From the IMG/VR virus record IMGVR_UViG_2548876946_000015, positions 1 to 17,929 of that record: a stretch of 17,929 bases of DNA; one strand, given 5' to 3'. Position 1 is the stretch's first letter, and the number at the start of each line of letters is the position of its first letter. This document shows positions 10,423-17,929 of the stretch, one piece after another. The position numbers were made by a program, and so were the translations under genes. The notes under the pieces are model-generated. The model was given only the letters and a program-made list of their open reading frames with translations, searched no databases and was not told the DNA's origin. This DNA comes from a virus. Its lineage: Duplodnaviria; Heunggongvirae; Uroviricota; Caudoviricetes.

Positions 10423-10455
10423 GCAAGCATACATCACAACAAAGGTGCTTGCATT
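10420..10455. repeat. Operator-like inverted repeat IR2 (AATGCAAGCAT ... TGCTTGCATT)
   Basis: Second copy of the 12-bp TAATGCAAGCAT at 10419-10430 (first copy at 10363-10374) with an inverted partner TGCTTGCAT at 10446-10454, ending 1 nt before the ATG at 10456. Confidence 0.45.
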
Positions 10456-11424
10456 ATGACTGAAAAGAAAAGTGGCGAAGGGAAAGCTAAGGGCGGGATC
10501 GCTCGCGCAAAGTCGCTGACTAAAGAGCAGCGTTCTGAAATAGCAAAGAAAGCAGCTGCTGCAAGATGGAAAAGTAAGATTCTCAGGGCAACTCATCGTG
10601 GTAACTTTTTAGATGATTTTGGCATTGACGCTGAATGTTATGTACTGGATGACGAGTCGAAAACTGTCGTTGTTACGAAAACTGGATTATCTCAGTTGCT
10701 AGGGATTGGTGAACATGCCAGGGATTTAGATCAACTGCTTGGCGCTCAGTATATGAGCAAATACCGAGATCTAGAATTGCAGCGAAAAATGGAAAATCCC
10801 TATAAATTTCAACTTACTTCGAAGTCTAAAACCGTTCATCAAGCGTTAGGTTATGACATTACAGCAATTGTTGATATTGGTAGGGCACTAATAGAAGCCA
10901 AAGATAATGACGATCTACCACAATCACGGTTAAAGGCAGCCGCCGCAGCACAGAGACTTATTAATGCCTCCGCTAAGGCGGGAATTAAGGGGGTTGCGTA
11001 TGCGCTTGCTGGTTATCGTCCAGAAGTTCAGGCTGTCATTGACGAGTTCAAAGCGTTTGTTCGTGAAGAGGCTCGTCAATATGAAAAGGAATTTCCAGAT
11101 GAGCTATACGAGGAGTGGTATCGACTGTACGGCCTGAATAGGCCAGAGAAAGGACGGCCTATTCGTTTTGGGCAGCTAACCAACATGCAGATATATACCC
11201 CGCTAGCAAAGAGCAAAGGTAAAATTCTTGAACAGATTCGAGCCAGCCGAGACGAGAACGGAAAACAATCTGATAAGTTGCATCTGTTCCTTTCTGAAAT
11301 TGGTGTCAAGGCTTTGCGTCAGCATATCGGTAAGCTTCTTGGTGTCGCAGCGATGAGTGAGACAAGAGAAGAATACGAAAAAGGAATAGAAAAGGTTTTC
11401 GGAAGAATGAAACCAGAAATCTAA
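10456..11424 (+). CDS. Hypothetical accessory (moron) protein, 322 aa; basic N-terminal segment; function unknown
   Basis: Start preferred at ATG 10456 (MTEKKSGEGKAKGGIARAKSLTKEQRSEIAKKAAAARW...) with AAAGG 8-9 nt upstream; the track's 10393 start lies inside the promoter/operator region. Lys/Ala-rich N-terminus followed by a segment (CYVLDDESKTVVVTKTGLSQLLGIGEHARDLDQLL) loosely reminiscent of KilA-N/Bro-N-type folds. Ends at a strong terminator. Confidence 0.6.
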   Translation: MTEKKSGEGKAKGGIARAKSLTKEQRSEIAKKAAAARWKSKILRATHRGNFLDDFGIDAECYVLDDESKTVVVTKTGLSQLLGIGEHARDLDQLLGAQYMSKYRDLELQRKMENPYKFQLTSKSKTVHQALGYDITAIVDIGRALIEAKDNDDLPQSRLKAAAAAQRLINASAKAGIKGVAYALAGYRPEVQAVIDEFKAFVREEARQYEKEFPDELYEEWYRLYGLNRPEKGRPIRFGQLTNMQIYTPLAKSKGKILEQIRASRDENGKQSDKLHLFLSEIGVKALRQHIGKLLGVAAMSETREEYEKGIEKVFGRMKPEI

Positions 11425-11428
11425 TTAT

Positions 11429-11456
11429 GAAACCCACCTTCAGGTGGGTTTTTTGT
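11429..11456 (+). terminator. Rho-independent terminator after the 322-aa gene
   Basis: AAACCCAC-CTTCAG-GTGGGTTT hairpin followed by TTTTTTG. Confidence 0.7.
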
Positions 11457-11503
11457 ACAAATCCTTCAGCCAGTACATAACTACTGACAGATAACCAACG
11501 CAA

Positions 11504-11530
11504 CGACCCAGCTTCGGCTGGGTTTTTTTA
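11504..11530 (+). terminator. Second tandem Rho-independent terminator
   Basis: ACCCAGC-TTCG-GCTGGGT hairpin (UUCG tetraloop) followed by TTTTTTT. Confidence 0.7.
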
Positions 11531-11535
11531 TGCCC

Positions 11536-11667
11536 AAAATTCACCGTGTCCACGCTTAGGTAATGAGCTTGAAGGAGAGCACTACACAAAAAGTGTAGTG
11601 CAAAAAGCGAACAAAATAACTTCCTAAAAAGTTGTTTTATCACAAAAAAATTCACCGTAGCCATGCT
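11536..11667 (+). promoter_or_regulatory. Tailspike upstream region with a 21-bp direct repeat pair flanking a perfect 9-bp palindrome
   Basis: AAAATTCACCGTGTCCACGCT (11536-11556) and AAAATTCACCGTAGCCATGCT (11647-11667) are 18/21 identical. GCACTACAC-AAAAA-GTGTAGTGC lies at 11579-11601. Confidence 0.4.
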
Positions 11668-11699
11668 GCGGCGATTCCTTGTATCTGGAGCAAATTAAA

Positions 11700-13940
11700 A
11701 TGACAGATTCAATAAATGCCAATGTTGTAGTGAGTATGCCTTCGCAACTCTTCACTATGGCGCGTTCTTTTAAAGCCGTAGCCAATGGTAAAATTTATAT
11801 CGGTAAAATTGACACTGACCCGGTAAATCCTGAAAACCAGATTCAGGTTTATGTGGAGAACGAAGATGGCTCTCACGTTCCTGTTTCTCAACCAATCATC
11901 ATTAACGCTGCTGGCTACCCTGTATATAACGGACAGATTGCTAAGTTCGTTACTGTACAAGGGCATTCTATGGCTGTTTATGATGCGTACGGTGCTCAGC
12001 AGTTCTATTTTTCGAATGTGCTGAAGTATGACCCTGACCAACTCAGGCAAGATCTTGCATCTCAAGGAGGTGTTAATCTGGTAAACGGAGCTATCTCACA
12101 GGAAGATCTTGTTTTGCAGTCGATCACAAAAATTCCAAGTTATGATAATTCTAACGTAGTCCAGGCGTGGCGCGATAGTGTTGCGACCTACGGGTATGTT
12201 TACTTCTCTAATCATTCAAAAAATCAGATGGTGTACACCGTACCGTCTACAGCTGCTAACGCTTCTTTCCTTGCGAACAGTAAAGTAATCATTGATAAAA
12301 ATGTCACCCTGAGATTCGACAGTGATCTGTACTCACTGTTTAAATCGTTGCAGTACGAGGGGGAGGGTACGTTTGAATTTACGCACCTGAACTTTAAAGC
12401 AACCGGTGGAGAAGTGGATTACCTGGCTAAGCAGGCCATCCTCAACCGAAATCCTATTCGCATGAAGCGAGTGGAATGGTCAGATTGTAAAGTTTATTCC
12501 ATAAATGGTGACACGTTCTTCTATGAAGGTGAAGTCACCATATCCTCAGATAGCGCAGCTATCTTCCCCTTAACTACTGACCGTACAACAGGCCTGTTCG
12601 CACCAATAGATATTGGAGAGCATATTTCTGCACATATTCGTATGGAGTCTCAGGCCGCCTCAGAAGTTGGGATTGTTCTGCGATGCTCTGGTGGTTGGAT
12701 GATGTTCTATGGGGCACCAGGTGCTACACAGTGGTCTTATAGACAGAAACCAATTGGTGGTCCAGTAGCAGAAGGAACTCCATTCCCGCTGCCAGGAGGT
12801 TTACTGTCGTACGCCCCGGGCAAAGCAACCGTTGGCGTATCACTGCAAGGTAAAAACTGGGCGCAGATAACGATGAATGGCGTTGGGATACGTTTGCCCT
12901 TTGATACTGCTGATGTAGGGGATGTATACGAAGTTGGGTTTGTTGCACTGACCACGGCATCTGGAGGTTCTGCGCGTGTAACTGGATTATGCAGCTACAC
13001 CTCTGATAATGGCGTGCACGGTAAGCCTCCACTTAATATCCTTATCCACGGTGATAGTACAGCTGAGGATTTCATTTCCGCGTTCAGCTCGTACATTCCG
13101 CAATTAATGGATGGAGCGAACGGCCACCGTTCATATAGCATTGTAAACAAGGCAGTTGCCGGACAGACAATGAGGCAACAGTTAGATCTCCTGAAGGCTC
13201 AGGGGCCGGGTGATGCTTACATCGTTATTATGGTTGCCGGAACTAACGAAGGGCAGGCAAACCAAAACGGCGATTATATGGCGGCACTGATAGATGAGTT
13301 TGTCTTATATTGCAATGGCCTTGGTCGTATCCCTGTTTGGGTTGAGCCGTGGATGTGGTATAGCCAGTCATTTATTGGAGGGGCTGGCCAGCCATCTTCT
13401 AACTACGACGGTGTCGCAGAGTTGCGAGAAGCTGGTAAACGCCAGATGATGAAATATGGCAATAACGTCATTTGTGTAACAACAACTCACCAGCTCCCGG
13501 CCCCATATCCAGAGTATTTCAATACGCAATACGACCCACTTCTGCGTGATGACATTCACCAAAGCCAGTTAGGGTATCGTCTGTATGCGGAAATTATCTG
13601 CTCTGCCATTATCGACTGGTGGTCGCGTGTTGATTACACGCCAAGAGCAGCTGTTCAATGGTGGGCTGGAACAAACGTAACAGTACAGGCACCGTCAAGT
13701 TTAACTGCCAATTCAATTAATATTAAACTGGCAGCCACTTCATTTGCGAATGGTAATACTGTTCTAACGCTGCCAAGGTGGTGTAGACCAACAGTAACAA
13801 AAAATGTCCCTGTACCGTTCACTGCTGATGGAATATCTTACGGTATGGCGATGGCAACAATAAGCGCATCAACCGGGTCGATAACAATTAATGGATCTAC
13901 TACAGCCTCACCAATATTTTACATTGATGCTTCCTGGTAG
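11700..13940 (+). CDS. Tailspike protein: P22-type N-terminal head-binding domain plus SGNH/GDSL esterase-type domain, 746 aa
   Basis: Start preferred at ATG 11700 ([12 protein letters not shown]...) with GGAG upstream; the track's 11679 start is a TTG. The N-terminal ~110 aa ([39 protein letters not shown]...[15 protein letters not shown]...NVLKYDPDQ) closely resemble the P22 tailspike head-binding domain as recalled. The C-terminal half has SGNH blocks: GDS at 13050-13058 ([14 protein letters not shown]), a Gly block (AVAGQT), GTNE ([11 protein letters not shown]) and DxxH at 13548-13559 ([10 protein letters not shown]). Confidence 0.85.
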
Positions 13941-13967
13941 AAAAAGGCCGCAATGCGGCCATCTTTT
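13941..13967. terminator. Bidirectional terminator between the convergent tailspike and SGNH genes
   Basis: AAAAA-GGCCGCA/TGCGGCC hairpin-ATCTTTT; A-tract on one side and T-tract on the other. Confidence 0.55.
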
Positions 13968-14661
13968 ACTTCACATGTTTATTAATCTCTCTCATCCAAA
14001 CGGCATAGCCATTTTTATTTAAATGCACTCCATCATCAAAGTACAATTCAGATTTTTTATCAGATAAAAAATCTGCAGGAACTTCTATTATATTGCAGTT
14101 AACTATGCGACTACATGTTCTATCAATAATAGAGTTAATCATGCTTATTCTTGAATTGACATGGTCTACGTCTTTTCTTGCCCCGCTTATGATTGGCAAA
14201 ACTTTTAATGCATAAATATTATCAACCTTTGATACACTCTTAAGCAGTTTGTCATAATCATCAAATATTTCCTCTTCGGTTTTCGCACCCATCGCATCGT
14301 TAACTCCACCTTCAATTATCGCAGCTTTATATCCAGACGCCCCATAATTTTCTGATAGAGTTAGGATCTGATGTATAGAGTATCCTCCGACCCCCATATT
14401 AACATATTTAAAGTTTAACCCATATGGTGACATTCCTTGTATGAGCGAGTCGCCATAAACCACAATGTCGCCGTCAGCTTGATTAGCATTCATTTTTTTA
14501 AAATCTAGCATCACAGCCTGAAAGTCGTTAACTTTTTTTTGAGATAAATAATTTCTAATTGAACGAACAGACAATACTATAATAACTATTGCAATCAGAA
14601 TAAACAGCATTGCCAAATATTTATTTGCTTGAGACTTTCTATTTGTTTGTTTTGACTTCAT
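13966..14661 (-). CDS. Membrane-anchored SGNH/GDSL-family hydrolase (esterase or acyl-transfer accessory domain), 231 aa
   Basis: ATG at 14661 with AAAGGA 7 nt upstream. One N-terminal TM helix (YLAMLFILIAIVIIVLSV). SGNH blocks I (VVYGDSLIQG), II (NMGVGGYS), III (EGGVNDA) and V (DDGVHLNKNGY). Very AT-rich. Confidence 0.8.
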   Translation of the reverse strand: MKSKQTNRKSQANKYLAMLFILIAIVIIVLSVRSIRNYLSQKKVNDFQAVMLDFKKMNANQADGDIVVYGDSLIQGMSPYGLNFKYVNMGVGGYSIHQILTLSENYGASGYKAAIIEGGVNDAMGAKTEEEIFDDYDKLLKSVSKVDNIYALKVLPIISGARKDVDHVNSRISMINSIIDRTCSRIVNCNIIEVPADFLSDKKSELYFDDGVHLNKNGYAVWMREINKHVK

Positions 14662-14745
14662 TGCATTTTCCTTTTAATAAGGTTTAAGGTTAAAAATATA
14701 TTTACGCTTCAAATCAACGAATTGAGAAAATTATTCAGCCAACCA

Positions 14746-15024
14746 CTAACTAGACTTGCAATCTAATCTTATATATGATCTGAGTAAGAGTGTAAAAATC
14801 CGCTTAATCCTTCTTAAGTAAAAATCGGAAAAAGAAAATTTACCGCTATTTAAATTTTTAAAAATAATACTTGAAATTAAAAGGCTAGATATTATGAAAA
14901 ATAAATCAAACCCATTGAACTCTCCAGAAAATGCGCTTGGGAAAGCGTGAAACATCACAACAGCGACTGCTCTTAAACCATCTATACCAGCTCTATACTT
15001 TATCATTTTTATTGTCCAATTCAT
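14746..15024 (-). pseudogene. Remnant of an acyltransferase-3 (AT3) gene: N-terminal ~90 codons only
   Basis: Translation MIKYRAGIDGLRAVAVVMFHAFP...FNGFDLFFIISSLLISSIIFKNLNSGKFSFSDFYLRRIKRIF matches the conserved N-terminal signature of AT3/OafA/OatA-type acyltransferases (R...H motif, VDxFFxISGxLI, FYxRRxxRI). The ORF stops after 92 codons, 85 bp before the SGNH gene, and is in the same reading frame as the SGNH ORF. Confidence 0.55.
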
Positions 15025-15313
15025 CTACAGTGAAAGAGCAAAGAAAAACAATGCAATATATCTCATGTGACTACTCCTAAAATAAATTTAATGATAATAA
15101 CATCATGAGGATAAATTTAGAAGTGGGAAGATCGGAAATGCTCATTGAGCAGCAGAAAAAATATCACTGACTCTGTATACACATACAGTATTTTTTGTCT
15201 GTTATTGATCATTGGATACTTGAGCCTAGCGTAAAAGTAATATGAATGATACAGTATGCTTATATAATTGATTTTTGCTCTCGGTGTAAGTTCGGATTGT
15301 ATTATATAACCAG

Positions 15314-15339
15314 AAAATATCCCCAGAACTAAGCTGGGG
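15314..15339 (-). terminator. Terminator after the AT3 acyltransferase gene (minus strand)
   Basis: Minus strand reads CCCCAG-CTTAGTT-CTGGGG followed by ATATTTT, immediately after the stop at 15354-15356. Confidence 0.5.
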
Positions 15340-15353
15340 ATTCATGTCATATG

Positions 15354-16394
15354 TCAGCTTGCTAGTGCGATCTTCCTAAGCCTGTGACCTATATTTATAG
15401 ATGGTTTTTCAATTACCTTATAAGAAATAGTTGCTAGTGCGATCGTAGCTAATAGGTATAAAACAAAAATAATAAAATTAAAATCTGTGTCCATGTCTAT
15501 ACTGACAGATACAATCTCTAAAAAGAATGGGTGAATCAAGTATACAGAGTAACTTATCGATCCCAGGAAAACCAATAATCCTACATTCAATTTTACCCGT
15601 GTAGTGAGCAATAGCGTCAATACTATGCCTGTAAGATAGCTAGCAATATAGGAGGAAGCATTTTCCCCATGCCCATAGTCTTTATTGTAGGACATTAAGC
15701 AAATCGGAGCAATCGCCACTAGGAATGTTATTAAAAATACAATGCACATATTTCTTTCTGATCTCGATGCAATCCCAATGCTCACTGAACGCCATAAGCT
15801 ACCAAAGAACATTAATGACATAGCTAGCGGTATTGCCACAGGAACTTTTTTATCAAGAACGAATCTCACGTATGAGAAAGCAAGAGCGGTTGCAATAAGT
15901 CCTATAGAAATTAAAAATAAAGAAACCTTACTCTTTAATAAATTTACTTTGAAAAGAAACGCACAGGAAGCATAGAAGAACAACTCAATTATTAGCGTCC
16001 AATAAACACCAAACATATCTGGAGATCTCAGTAAAGATTGAAGCATGGTAATATTAGACAACAGAGTTCTTATATCAAGTGGTCTATGAGTTACAAACAA
16101 AAAAGTAAAGGCCGCCAGAAATACTGAAAACCAGTAAGCGGGATATAGTCTAAAAAACCTTGATATAATGAACCCGGATATCGCTCTTTTCCCTTCCTTT
16201 AGGCTGTAAGGTATTACCATGCCACTTAACACAAAGAAGCAAACAACACCAACCTGACCAAAGTTAACATGCTTAAATAAAAAACTGTTATGCAATGGTG
16301 TTCGCTCTATGAAATGTGCACATGCAACCATCAGGGCTGCAAGTCCACGCAAAGAGTCTAGGAATTCTAGACGATTTCCATTTCTTATAGACAT
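15354..16394 (-). CDS. Acyltransferase family 3 (AT3) integral membrane O-acyltransferase, 346 aa; candidate O-antigen acetyltransferase for lysogenic conversion
   Basis: ATG at 16394. N-terminal LDSLRGLAALMVACAHF (R...H catalytic signature), FGQVGVVCFFVLSGMVI and about ten hydrophobic helices. AT-rich. Located between tailspike and integrase, where the Sf6 oac-type gene lies. Confidence 0.8.
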   Translation of the reverse strand: MSIRNGNRLEFLDSLRGLAALMVACAHFIERTPLHNSFLFKHVNFGQVGVVCFFVLSGMVIPYSLKEGKRAISGFIISRFFRLYPAYWFSVFLAAFTFLFVTHRPLDIRTLLSNITMLQSLLRSPDMFGVYWTLIIELFFYASCAFLFKVNLLKSKVSLFLISIGLIATALAFSYVRFVLDKKVPVAIPLAMSLMFFGSLWRSVSIGIASRSERNMCIVFLITFLVAIAPICLMSYNKDYGHGENASSYIASYLTGIVLTLLLTTRVKLNVGLLVFLGSISYSVYLIHPFFLEIVSVSIDMDTDFNFIIFVLYLLATIALATISYKVIEKPSINIGHRLRKIALAS

Positions 16395-16710
16395 TAAAGA
16401 TACCTAAGTTAAGTGTAGTAATAGGATTAATTTTAACAGCATGATTCTGTTGATCAATGGATAAGCAGCGTGTTTTGAAGTTGATCTGATTTTTACTATG
16501 ATTATATTGTGTTCTCGCACAGTATTTTATCGTAAGTGCACCATGGGCTTCTATCTCCAGCAGCAGAACTAGTTGAAGATAGTGTGTCAATCGACAAGAG
16601 CCTTATTGCTCCAATCTCAGTCACGTACATGATGATATCCGTCAGGTCATTATCAACGAAGAGTGTTATGGTTAGTTTGATTATTGTGCGGTGATGTGAG
16701 AAAAACTTAG

Positions 16711-16740
16711 AAAAACAAAGTCTTGCACTGGATTGCAAGG
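16711..16740 (-). terminator. Terminator downstream of the integrase gene (minus strand)
   Basis: Minus strand reads CCTTGCA-ATCCAG-TGCAAG followed by ACTTTGTTTTT, about 30 nt after the integrase stop. Confidence 0.45.
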
Positions 16741-16771
16741 CTTTGCGCTATTCGATTGTGGTTGAGGCTGA

Positions 16772-17929
16772 TCACTTCACCTTTTCATCAAGCCAATCCG
16801 CCCACCACTGCATCATTTCTCTGCGCTTATCGAGATACTGAGCGTGGTTGTAAATCCCGCGCACAGATCCGCCGTTGGCATGTGCCAGTTGCACTTCAAT
16901 AGCGTCAGCAGGCCATTCGTGCTCGTTCATAATCGTGCTGAATTCATGCCTGAATCCGTGACCGCTTTCCAGACCTTCATAGCCGATTTGTTTGATCACA
17001 AGCAGTACAGCGTTCTCGCAAATTGGCTTCTTCTTATCGTTGCGCCCGGCAAAAACAAACTCTGACACTGGTTTAGTGATTGAGCTTAGCGTAGTGAGAA
17101 GTTCAATCACCTGGTCTGACATAGGAACCACATGAATTTTGCGTCCCTTCATCACACTGGCGTCGATGGTGATAATCCTGTTTTCAAAATCGACGTTCTT
17201 CCATAGCATGGAACGAAGCTCTTTCGTTCTTAGGGCTGTGTAGCGTAAAACTTTGGTCGCAATGAGCGATACGATACTTCCTGAAAATGTTGCCAGTGCT
17301 TTGTTGAATGCCGGGATCTGGTCTGCAGGAAGAAACGGGAAGTTCTTCTTGCGGTATCCCTTCATGGCGTCAGCAAGGTCAGGTGCCGGGTTATATTTAG
17401 CCCTACCAGTGACAATAGCGTAACGGAAAACCTCGCCGCATCTTCTGCGGGCTTTATTTGCTCGCTCCATTGCACCGCGATCTTCAAATCTGCGGATTAC
17501 TTCCAGTAGTTGCATCGGCTCAATATCCTGAATTTCAAGACCGCCGATGATGGGTAAAATGTCGTCATCAAACATTTTTGCAAGTTCATTTGCATAGCCT
17601 ACTGACCAGACTTGCTTCTTGTGCTCGTACCATTCCTTGTAAATGGCGCTAAAGGAATTGTTGTTAGACGAAGCCTTTTTCGCCTTTACCGGATCGATGC
17701 CAACCGAGATGTCTTTCCTCGCAGTCCATGCCTTATCCCTTGCTTCCTGCAAAGTCATAAGCGGATATTTTCCGATGGTCAGGATTTTCTCCTTACCGTC
17801 AATCTTGTAGCGAAGCTGCCATACCTTTTTCCCTGATACAGGGACATAAAGGTACAGGCCATTACCATCGAGAAGGCGGTATGGTTTTTCTTTCGGCTTT
17901 GCTGCTTCAATCTGCTTAACGGTGAGCAT
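16772..17929 (-). CDS. int: Tyrosine recombinase / phage integrase, 385 aa
   Basis: ATG is the last three bases of the window. N-terminus MLTVKQIEAAKPKEKPYRLLDGNGLYLYV is typical of the P4-type integrase arm-binding domain. C-terminal catalytic signature HGFRHEF ... RGIYNHAQY (HxxR and Tyr). Confidence 0.85.
   Translation of the reverse strand: MLTVKQIEAAKPKEKPYRLLDGNGLYLYVPVSGKKVWQLRYKIDGKEKILTIGKYPLMTLQEARDKAWTARKDISVGIDPVKAKKASSNNNSFSAIYKEWYEHKKQVWSVGYANELAKMFDDDILPIIGGLEIQDIEPMQLLEVIRRFEDRGAMERANKARRRCGEVFRYAIVTGRAKYNPAPDLADAMKGYRKKNFPFLPADQIPAFNKALATFSGSIVSLIATKVLRYTALRTKELRSMLWKNVDFENRIITIDASVMKGRKIHVVPMSDQVIELLTTLSSITKPVSEFVFAGRNDKKKPICENAVLLVIKQIGYEGLESGHGFRHEFSTIMNEHEWPADAIEVQLAHANGGSVRGIYNHAQYLDKRREMMQWWADWLDEKVK

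Follow-up and report, generated by a model that had tools for sequence, protein, structure and literature searches.

Why does the spacer in front of the tailspike gene of a P22-like prophage carry two near-identical direct repeats with a perfect palindrome between them? The spacer lies in a DNA of 17,929 nucleotides (IMG/VR virus record IMGVR_UViG_2548876946_000015, positions 1 to 17,929; Caudoviricetes), called the window below, which is the late region of a P22-like (Lederbergvirus-type) Escherichia coli prophage. The original prediction reported the 21-bp repeats, 111 bp apart, and the palindrome GCACTACAC-AAAAA-GTGTAGTGC, placed them between two strong terminators and the tailspike start, and suggested that they may be relict or functional regulatory sites, or an RNA structure that affects read-through. 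Direct reading of the sequence agreed with this description: R1 (AAAATTCACCGTGTCCACGCT; 11536-11556) and R2 (AAAATTCACCGTAGCCATGCT; 11647-11667) are identical at 18 of the 21 positions with a start-to-start spacing of 111, the palindrome lies between them, and both terminators precede the tailspike ATG at 11700 (for the coordinates of all features, see Table 1). We interpret the feature differently. It is probably a recombination scar in the hypervariable region known as the ant moron, with 111 bp that are passively transcribed and have no dedicated role for the tailspike, and the palindrome appears to have been inherited from a dead antirepressor gene, in which it was conserved within the codons.

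Distribution of the segment among relatives

The 221 bp around the repeats and the palindrome were 100% identical to the E. coli chromosome NZ_CP148579.1. In the alignment with the spacer between ant and gene 9 of P22 (BK000583, 16036-16203), tANT, R1, the palindrome, the AT-rich hairpin, R2, and the leader followed one another in the same order with about 93% identity. In P22 the palindrome reads GACCTACAA-AAAAA-TTGTAGGTC and differs from that of the window at three symmetric pairs, and P22 has an intact ant gene upstream, whereas only the last ~27 nt of ant are left in the window; the P22 records that we examined annotate no feature in this stretch. HK620 and CUS-3 had a single repeat copy and lacked exactly the 111 bp. 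Note that the same ant-tailspike spacer (tANT and leader) is marked in CUS-3 (CP000711) as the boundary sequence bsq1, according to the annotation a module junction, but in the short form described below, with one repeat copy.

The sample of 124 loci with the junction between tANT and the repeat, mostly from IMG/VR, fell into three length classes. The short form, with 63-64 nt from tANT to the ATG, was found at 95 loci at least; the medium form is longer by 78 nt and has the palindrome without the AT-rich hairpin; the long form, longer by 111 nt, includes P22 and the window. Among the complete E. coli genomes, 547 of 5426 matched the region and just 27 had the long form. In the phage collection, the inner segment was essentially restricted to P22-type Salmonella phages. 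The repeats, which according to the original prediction should be conserved in close relatives if they were regulatory, were thus largely unconserved: the 111 bp were absent from HK620, from CUS-3, from at least 95 of the 124 loci, and from about 520 of the 547 matching E. coli genomes. Because the 111 bp are missing from most relatives, the segment is dispensable for a working tailspike gene.

Origin of the inner segment and of the repeats

A sensitive BLAST search with the inner 101 nt gave matches within antirepressor coding DNA, namely ORF19 of Erwinia phage Midgardsormr38 and APSE-7, with 86-91% identity in a stretch of 44 nt that has the palindrome at its centre (11563-11606 of the window). 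In these two phages the palindrome codes for ...DELEGE-TYTKSVG-RKNG..., and the window in the same frame reads NELEGEHYTKSVVQKANKITS, followed by a stop (after codon ~71); it has no start codon, and the list of open reading frames (ORFs) of the window has none called on the plus strand at this place. The gene family is of the P1/P7 Ant1/Ant2 type (PHROG 1726 / 63), in which the C-terminus is often KilAC (PF03374) and the N-terminal domain (N-domain) has no Pfam model.

Loci with more of the gene were also obtained. In locus L149 of IMG/VR and in a prophage of E. coli FDAARGOS_1288, tANT is followed by an R1 identical to that of the window and then, in frame, by the gene from about codon 50 onwards; the truncated gene of FDAARGOS_1288 is labelled by the Prokaryotic Genome Annotation Pipeline (PGAP) as a pseudogene lacking the N-terminus. 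The window is identical to this 5'-truncated gene through 11616 and diverges afterwards. At the same point the homology to the antirepressor gene stops, and by alignment none could be demonstrated for 11617-11646, a stretch of uncertain origin (decayed codons or filler) that contains the AT-rich hairpin. Intact genes were found between ant and the leader-tailspike unit in P22-like phages (L315-317, L143, L145, L161, L165, L191, and L204), of which L161, L191, and L315 share the allele of the window; the intact gene is usually followed by a minus-strand mnt-like gene, so named from its ORF translation. With homology to the gene, collinear intermediates, and lost coding capacity all present, the inner segment is a pseudogene fragment of an Ant1/Ant2-like antirepressor gene. 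A pattern scan of IMG/VR with CTACANAAAAANTGTAG was mostly non-specific, yet it brought in P22-like phages with intact genes; locus L095 was rejected as a chance match in an unrelated AT-rich genome.

The true length of the repeat is 29 nt (AAAATTCACCGTAGCCAYGCTGCGGCGAT), and it makes up the 5' portion of a leader conserved before the tailspike start in all contexts, whether after tANT, after the relic, or after the mnt-like gene. When up to 3 mismatches were allowed, no further copy of the 21-mer was found in the 17.9-kb window beyond R1 and R2, and no match in 200 dinucleotide shuffles. About 155 of 161 loci preserve the 7-bp hairpin of R2 (CCGTAGC-NNN-GCTGCGG), in which loop variation, G.U-type single changes, and one compensatory pair were seen; the R1 hairpin was broken in 44 of 46 loci. 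R2 is thus the apparent working leader of the tailspike mRNA and R1 its putative decaying duplicate, and the different fates of the two hairpins fit a history in which the leader was duplicated. Apart from this history, the leader hairpin at 11655-11671, which recurs with this leader in about 160 loci, is a candidate for a functional RNA element in the 5' untranslated region (UTR) of the tailspike gene of all P22-like phages.

The medium, long, and truncated-gene forms had a common R1 junction, in which the 29-nt R1 is followed by codon ~50 (GAT/AAT GAG CTT). The 3' junctions of the medium and the long forms were different. The sequence directly 5' of the leader in phages with the intact gene is GCAACAAAYRCCAACCGT, and the medium-form 3' junction is what a deletion from AACAAA in codons 65-68 to GCAACAAAT, directly before the leader in these phages, would leave, so that it is accounted for by the AACAAA repeats.

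We infer the following order of events. An illegitimate crossover would have fused the tailspike leader, at a point right after ...GCGGCGAT, with codon ~50 (GAT GAG CTT) of a second, P1 Ant1/Ant2-like antirepressor gene, the genome of which also carried the leader and the tailspike gene downstream, and the product would have had two leader copies around a 5'-truncated gene. Later independent deletions would then have reduced the dead gene to ~50-80 bp, and recombination or slippage between R1 and R2 would remove the segment cleanly, leading to the single-copy form of most relatives. The 111-bp segment would be transcribed passively in the late-operon read-through into the tailspike gene, and it would lack a function of its own because it is dispensable in relatives.

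The location agrees with what has been described for P22-like phages. The region between the ejection and tailspike genes, the ant moron, is reported as the single place of very high gene flux in the late operon and as a place holding degraded ant/immI genes (Villafane et al. 2008, PMC2629481), so that the locus, the gene flux, and the degraded immI genes between gene 16 and the tailspike gene are the same as here, as are the gene remnants of HK620, the record of which already annotates the terminators associated with the P22 mnt and ant gene remnants. In contrast, no mention of a second, Ant1-like antirepressor remnant or of a duplicated leader was found in that paper, and neither is annotated in the records that we examined.

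Several observations weigh against a scar without function. In the medium-form relics, the count of changes was 0 of 23 in the palindrome as compared with 6 of 33 in the flanks (hypergeometric p ~0.03), and the palindrome was intact in nearly all relic-bearing loci; since it stayed intact while the flanks drifted, something maintains it, which could be selection, self-correction by template switching, or patch conversion from intact copies. The relic variants mostly mirror coding alleles. P22 has a symmetric inner-pair variant (CAA...TTG) that was not seen among the coding alleles, and this would fit a continuing constraint on the relic. In addition, the whole leader region (11531-11710) is predicted to fold far better than shuffled sequence (-48.4 kcal/mol, z = -4.6), with the palindrome as a 9-bp stem. 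It nevertheless seems unlikely that the stem still matters in the relic, as RNA or as a DNA site.

Conservation and covariation of the palindrome in antirepressor genes

In the window, perfect inverted repeats of at least 9 bp with loops of 3-8 nt were found at 3 loci, as compared with 0.43 expected from shuffles. The palindrome alone is therefore merely mildly unexpected, and it is the comparative data that make it real. In 38 distinct N-domain coding sequences, synonymous variation was nearly nil in codons 54-61: TAC, AAA, and AGT (one of six possible Ser codons) were each used in 38/38 sequences, GTA in 34/34, and ACC in 21/21, whereas the codons flanking the palindrome had a codon entropy of 1-1.9 bits. 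Differences between alleles took the form of reverse-complement codon pairs, namely ACC...GGT (T..G), CAC...GTG (H..V), and TTT...AAA (F..K), with a further pair, GGT...ACC (G..T), in P7 and Shiga toxin (Stx)-phage genes. The palindrome was located at one and the same codon position in each family member examined, including P1/P7 ant, the Stx-phage genes, and Pseudomonas prophages, and in P7 ant it is perfect with 10-bp arms (GGGTTACGAA-ATC-TTCGTAACCC); unlike the P1/P7 Ant1/Ant2 genes, the window has ~17 codons only and not a gene. The P7 palindrome was unique in the 101 kb by a whole-genome search, which points to a single cis site.

A scan with one genome per species extended the family to homologues with as little as 31-40% protein identity; they were found in Pseudomonas, Proteus, Xenorhabdus, Shewanella, Pseudovibrio, Alkalilimnicola, and others. 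The stems that these distant homologues have at this codon position are unrelated in sequence (for example, CTGGGGGAGTGCAAATTTGTTGCACACCCCCAG and GGGGTGGGGACAAAAATTCCCCACCC). Among 94 distinct sequences, the palindrome site held the longest perfect stem of the entire N-domain in 72, and most of the others had an interrupted stem there. For 60 distinct sequences, 85% of the cells were paired versus 68% in shuffles (0/500 as high), the covariation score was 0.427 versus 0.129 in shuffles (0/500 as high) and 0.02-0.10 in slid controls, and 7 of the 11 stem pairs had changes on both sides. The palindrome embedded in the coding family thus appears to be a structured nucleic-acid element conserved by covariation above the controls.

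As for the level at which this constraint acts, one-sided (G.U) intermediates were almost absent from the coding family, unlike the leader hairpin in R2, which has an RNA-like pattern. Mismatches that occur include both U.G on the plus strand (EYY..VV alleles) and A.C on the plus strand (GTA to GCA alleles). In many coding alleles the symmetry extends to the central base, with 11-bp arms around a single free base, and the central codon, A-N-T, takes all four middle bases. A hairpin does not require symmetry up to the central base. The pattern of variation leans towards a constraint at the DNA level rather than the RNA level, such as a dyad-symmetric site, a cruciform, or concerted conversion of the arms by template switching.

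Quasipalindrome template-switch mutagenesis is a known mutational mechanism of E. coli (Klaric et al. 2020, PMC7202029). As far as that account goes, it would give arm complementarity and concerted change without selection, in agreement with the near absence of one-sided intermediates; however, it is a mutational mechanism and not a function, and by itself it leaves unexplained the survival of the palindrome at one codon position in homologues of 31-40% identity. Separately, a medium-form relic (L335; IMG/VR 2534681875_000018) has a messy partial tandem duplication of the right arm of the palindrome and its 3' flank (...CGAAATTTTCGTTTCGTAGTTCAAAAACCAAACAAATACGAAATTTTCGTAGTTCAAAAACC...), as could arise from replication slippage or template switching there.

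Database searches did not connect the element with a known one. Rfam 15, searched with the region of the window and with an intact gene, gave nothing at the gathering threshold, and the best match over the palindrome was RT-6 with 14.5-15.3 bits (threshold, 46.7). In the searchable literature on antirepressor stem-loops and palindromes, P1 ant1, and the CUS-3 boundary sequences, no description of the element was found. No relative of the N-domain was found by sequence in the PDB. In an AlphaFold2 model of the N-domain (pLDDT 75), the residues encoded by the palindrome are located in a loop and in the first strand of a beta-hairpin, and a Foldseek search with this model gave nothing significant (E >=0.26, TM <=0.33), which speaks neither for nor against DNA binding.

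We tentatively propose, at somewhat less than even confidence, that the palindrome is an undescribed, selected cis-element within the N-domain coding sequence of Ant1/Ant2-like antirepressor genes, of which the relic copies in P22 and in the window are still maintained. Its scope may include the ant genes of P1/P7, the "antirepressor/Roi" genes of Stx phages, the genes of P22-like phages and APSE, and prophage genes of Pseudomonas, Proteus, Xenorhabdus, Shewanella, and Pseudovibrio. Such a constraint may dictate the amino acids on both sides of the beta-strand and loop as reverse-complement codon pairs, and the element may be a site of dyad symmetry in the DNA, or a hairpin in the mRNA that limits the expression of a protein whose leaky synthesis would trigger prophage induction.

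Some further observations were made on this gene family. Codons 1-13 of the Ant1-like genes (for example, L315 3001-3040) also had very low synonymous variation, with a single codon used at each of ATG ACT ... AAT TTA GCA ... GTT GTC, and this suggests that the 5' end of the gene is under a second constraint at the nucleotide level. The APSE-7 copy (L239; LR794147, ~2852-3280) is unannotated and looks frameshifted; it has a run of A8 right after the palindrome (GGTCAAAAAAAACGG) as compared with A7 in its relatives, and the A-run may be a slippage site. Many matches in the protein search with the N-domain were short ORFs (56-110 aa) from genomes of Salmonella, Klebsiella, and E. coli; some of these are "partial" owing to short contigs, and others, located on multi-megabase contigs, look truncated and consist of the N-domain only. 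A connection of the hairpin with the internal Ant2 start of P1/P7 was rejected, since the ant2 start is upstream of the whole homologous domain.

Alternative explanations

The palindrome, with or without the AT-rich hairpin, could have been retained as a functional RNA element of the tailspike 5' UTR, namely a hairpin for stabilisation or processing of the RNA, or a modulator of read-through from the late operon. The sense-strand transcription between tANT and the tailspike start and the predicted fold given above are in line with this, and so is the preservation of the stem in almost all relics, including two U.G-compatible single-change variants (L346 and L348). However, most P22-like phages with the same leader and the same tailspike head-binding domain lack the segment; the palindrome has no U-tract; it pre-existed in the coding sequence, so that its presence needs no UTR function; and in the coding family the two arms vary together and G.U intermediates hardly occur, which sets the palindrome apart from the leader hairpin of R2. 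We consider this explanation improbable, and a minor RNA-level effect on the tailspike leader is what may be left of it. As an intrinsic terminator or attenuator the palindrome was rejected, since no U-tract follows it (the next sequence is AAAAAGCG) and the terminator scan gave 11505-11524 alone in this stretch. The many symmetric coding alleles, with their single free base in A-N-T, and the concerted changes of the arms would also be expected of a double-stranded DNA site (dyad or cruciform), still active in the relic and bound by the Ant1-like proteins of co-resident prophages or by a host protein, which would then be a decoy or a roadblock 5' of the tailspike gene. A possible analogy is the antirepressor-like protein Roi of HK022, which was reported by Clerget and Boccard in 1996 to bind a site inside its own gene. 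The Roi N-domain is, however, of the Rha type and not homologous to the Ant1-like family (HK022 Roi gave no tblastn match, and its gene has only a weak 16-bp palindrome elsewhere); DNA binding by the Ant1-like N-domain finds no support in a PDB relative by sequence or fold; the single palindrome of P7 leaves no regulon of sites; and no Ant1-like protein is encoded in the window. An active DNA site in the relic is therefore quite improbable in our view.

The regulatory reading of the original prediction, in which the repeats and the palindrome are relict or functional operators of the Arc/Mnt type or a promoter for tailspike expression independent of the late operon, drew on the view that the corresponding region of P22 holds the ant promoter and the Arc/Mnt operators; the location in an immI-type moron is in line with it. 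The counterpart in P22 is instead the spacer 3' of the ant terminator, and Pant, Oarc, and Omnt are located between mnt and arc, ~1.2 kb upstream of it, so that P22 has the repeats besides its real operators. The best ungapped matches in the region were 11/21 for Oarc and 13/23 for Omnt, and they were equalled in 1879 and 384, respectively, of 2000 shuffles; the similarity to the operators is thus at chance level. R1 of the window has the 7-mer GTCCACG in common with Omnt, but this is limited to the R1 allele of the window and is absent from the common repeat sequence. No sigma-70-like promoter was scored on either strand of 11450-11700 in the promoter scan, and the window has no arc or mnt gene, with a SieA-like and a P63C-domain gene in their place. 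The sites are relict as a fragment of an antirepressor gene; as Pant or Arc/Mnt operators they are very improbable. Just as improbable is a small mobile insertion resembling a miniature inverted-repeat transposable element (MITE), with the repeats as its target-site duplication. The precise presence/absence polymorphism bounded by direct repeats would suit it, but the interior is collinear with antirepressor coding sequence and the longer intermediates carry the remainder of that gene, terminal inverted repeats were not found, and an imperfect duplication of 29 nt is atypical. In P22-like phages this locus was the only place of the inner segment, all its other matches being inside antirepressor genes, and the 111-bp unit was not seen at unrelated sites with new flanking duplications.

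Other features of the window

The positions of the features around the scar are listed in Table 1. The genes of the window follow in the order scaffold, coat, tail, and ejection proteins, SieA-like gene (minus strand), P63C-domain gene, tailspike gene, O-acetyltransferase gene, and integrase gene. The immI genes are here replaced by the SieA-like gene (minus strand, 9657-10430) and the gene for a 343-aa P63C-domain protein (10393-11424; phrog_2384, of unknown function), the 5' ends of which overlap by ~38 nt. The two upstream terminators (11432-11454 and 11506-11528) are themselves direct repeats of each other (ACCCACCTTCAGGTGGGTTTTTT and ACCCAGCTTCGGCTGGGTTTTTT; 87%) at a distance of 74 bp, and they bracket the ~27-nt remnant of the ant 3' end. 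A second palindrome in a coding region of the window, AT-rich and perfect with 11-bp arms (AGATTTTTTAT-CAG-ATAAAAAATCT), is located at 14050-14074 inside a minus-strand ORF (13966-14661; 231 aa, phrog_14008, of unknown function).

Table 1. Features between the P63C-domain gene and the end of the tailspike gene (positions in the window)
Feature	Position	Strand	Description and basis
Intrinsic terminator after the P63C-domain gene	11430-11454	+	Perfect 10-nt arms followed by T6; equals tMNT annotated in HK620 (annotation and alignment)
3'-end remnant of P22-type ant gene	11461-11487	+	TGA at 11485-11487, where ant of P22 has its stop codon; aligned with P22, CUS-3, and HK620
tANT, ant terminator	11505-11530	+	Identical in P22, CUS-3, and HK620; terminator scan, annotations, and alignment
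R1	11536-11564	+	Putative decaying copy of tailspike leader nt 1-29 (AAAATTCACCGTGTCCACGCTTAGGTAAT); small hairpin broken
P1 Ant1/Ant2-like antirepressor gene remnant, codons ~50-67	11565-11616	+	Frame reads ELEGEHYTKSVVQKANK
Perfect palindrome	11579-11601		Apparent family-wide stem-loop within antirepressor N-domain codons
AT-rich hairpin AAAATAACTT-CCTAAA-AAGTTGTTTT	11613-11638	+	Predicted fold; absent from medium-length forms
R2	11647-11675	+	Apparent working copy, 5' part of the leader; conserved hairpin CCGTAGC-CAT-GCTGCGG at 11655-11671
Remainder of the tailspike leader	11676-11699	+	Shine-Dalgarno GGAG at 11687-11690; sequence and conservation
Tailspike gene, 746 aa	11700-13940	+	HK620/P22-type head-binding domain; ORF list, PHROG and BLAST matches

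Implications

If the scar has the origin proposed here, the unannotated 170-bp spacer of P22 and its relatives is accounted for as a gene remnant and a duplicated leader, a candidate regulator of tailspike expression is removed, and the turnover of the ant moron is documented step by step, from the intact gene through the truncated gene, the medium relic, and the long relic to clean loss. Gene remnants in the ant moron are already known, and the scar matters little by itself. The by-product, a codon-embedded palindrome of the Ant1-like family that appears to be undescribed in the resources searched, matters more. It is a palindrome of 19-33 bp at one fixed codon position in a widespread antirepressor family that includes the textbook ant gene of P1, and it persists through complete turnover of its sequence, with constraint on the protein as the cost. 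Without a function, it would be an unusually clear natural case in which a palindrome perpetuates itself and thereby shapes a protein sequence. With one, it would be an unrecognised control point for antirepressor synthesis and hence for prophage induction.

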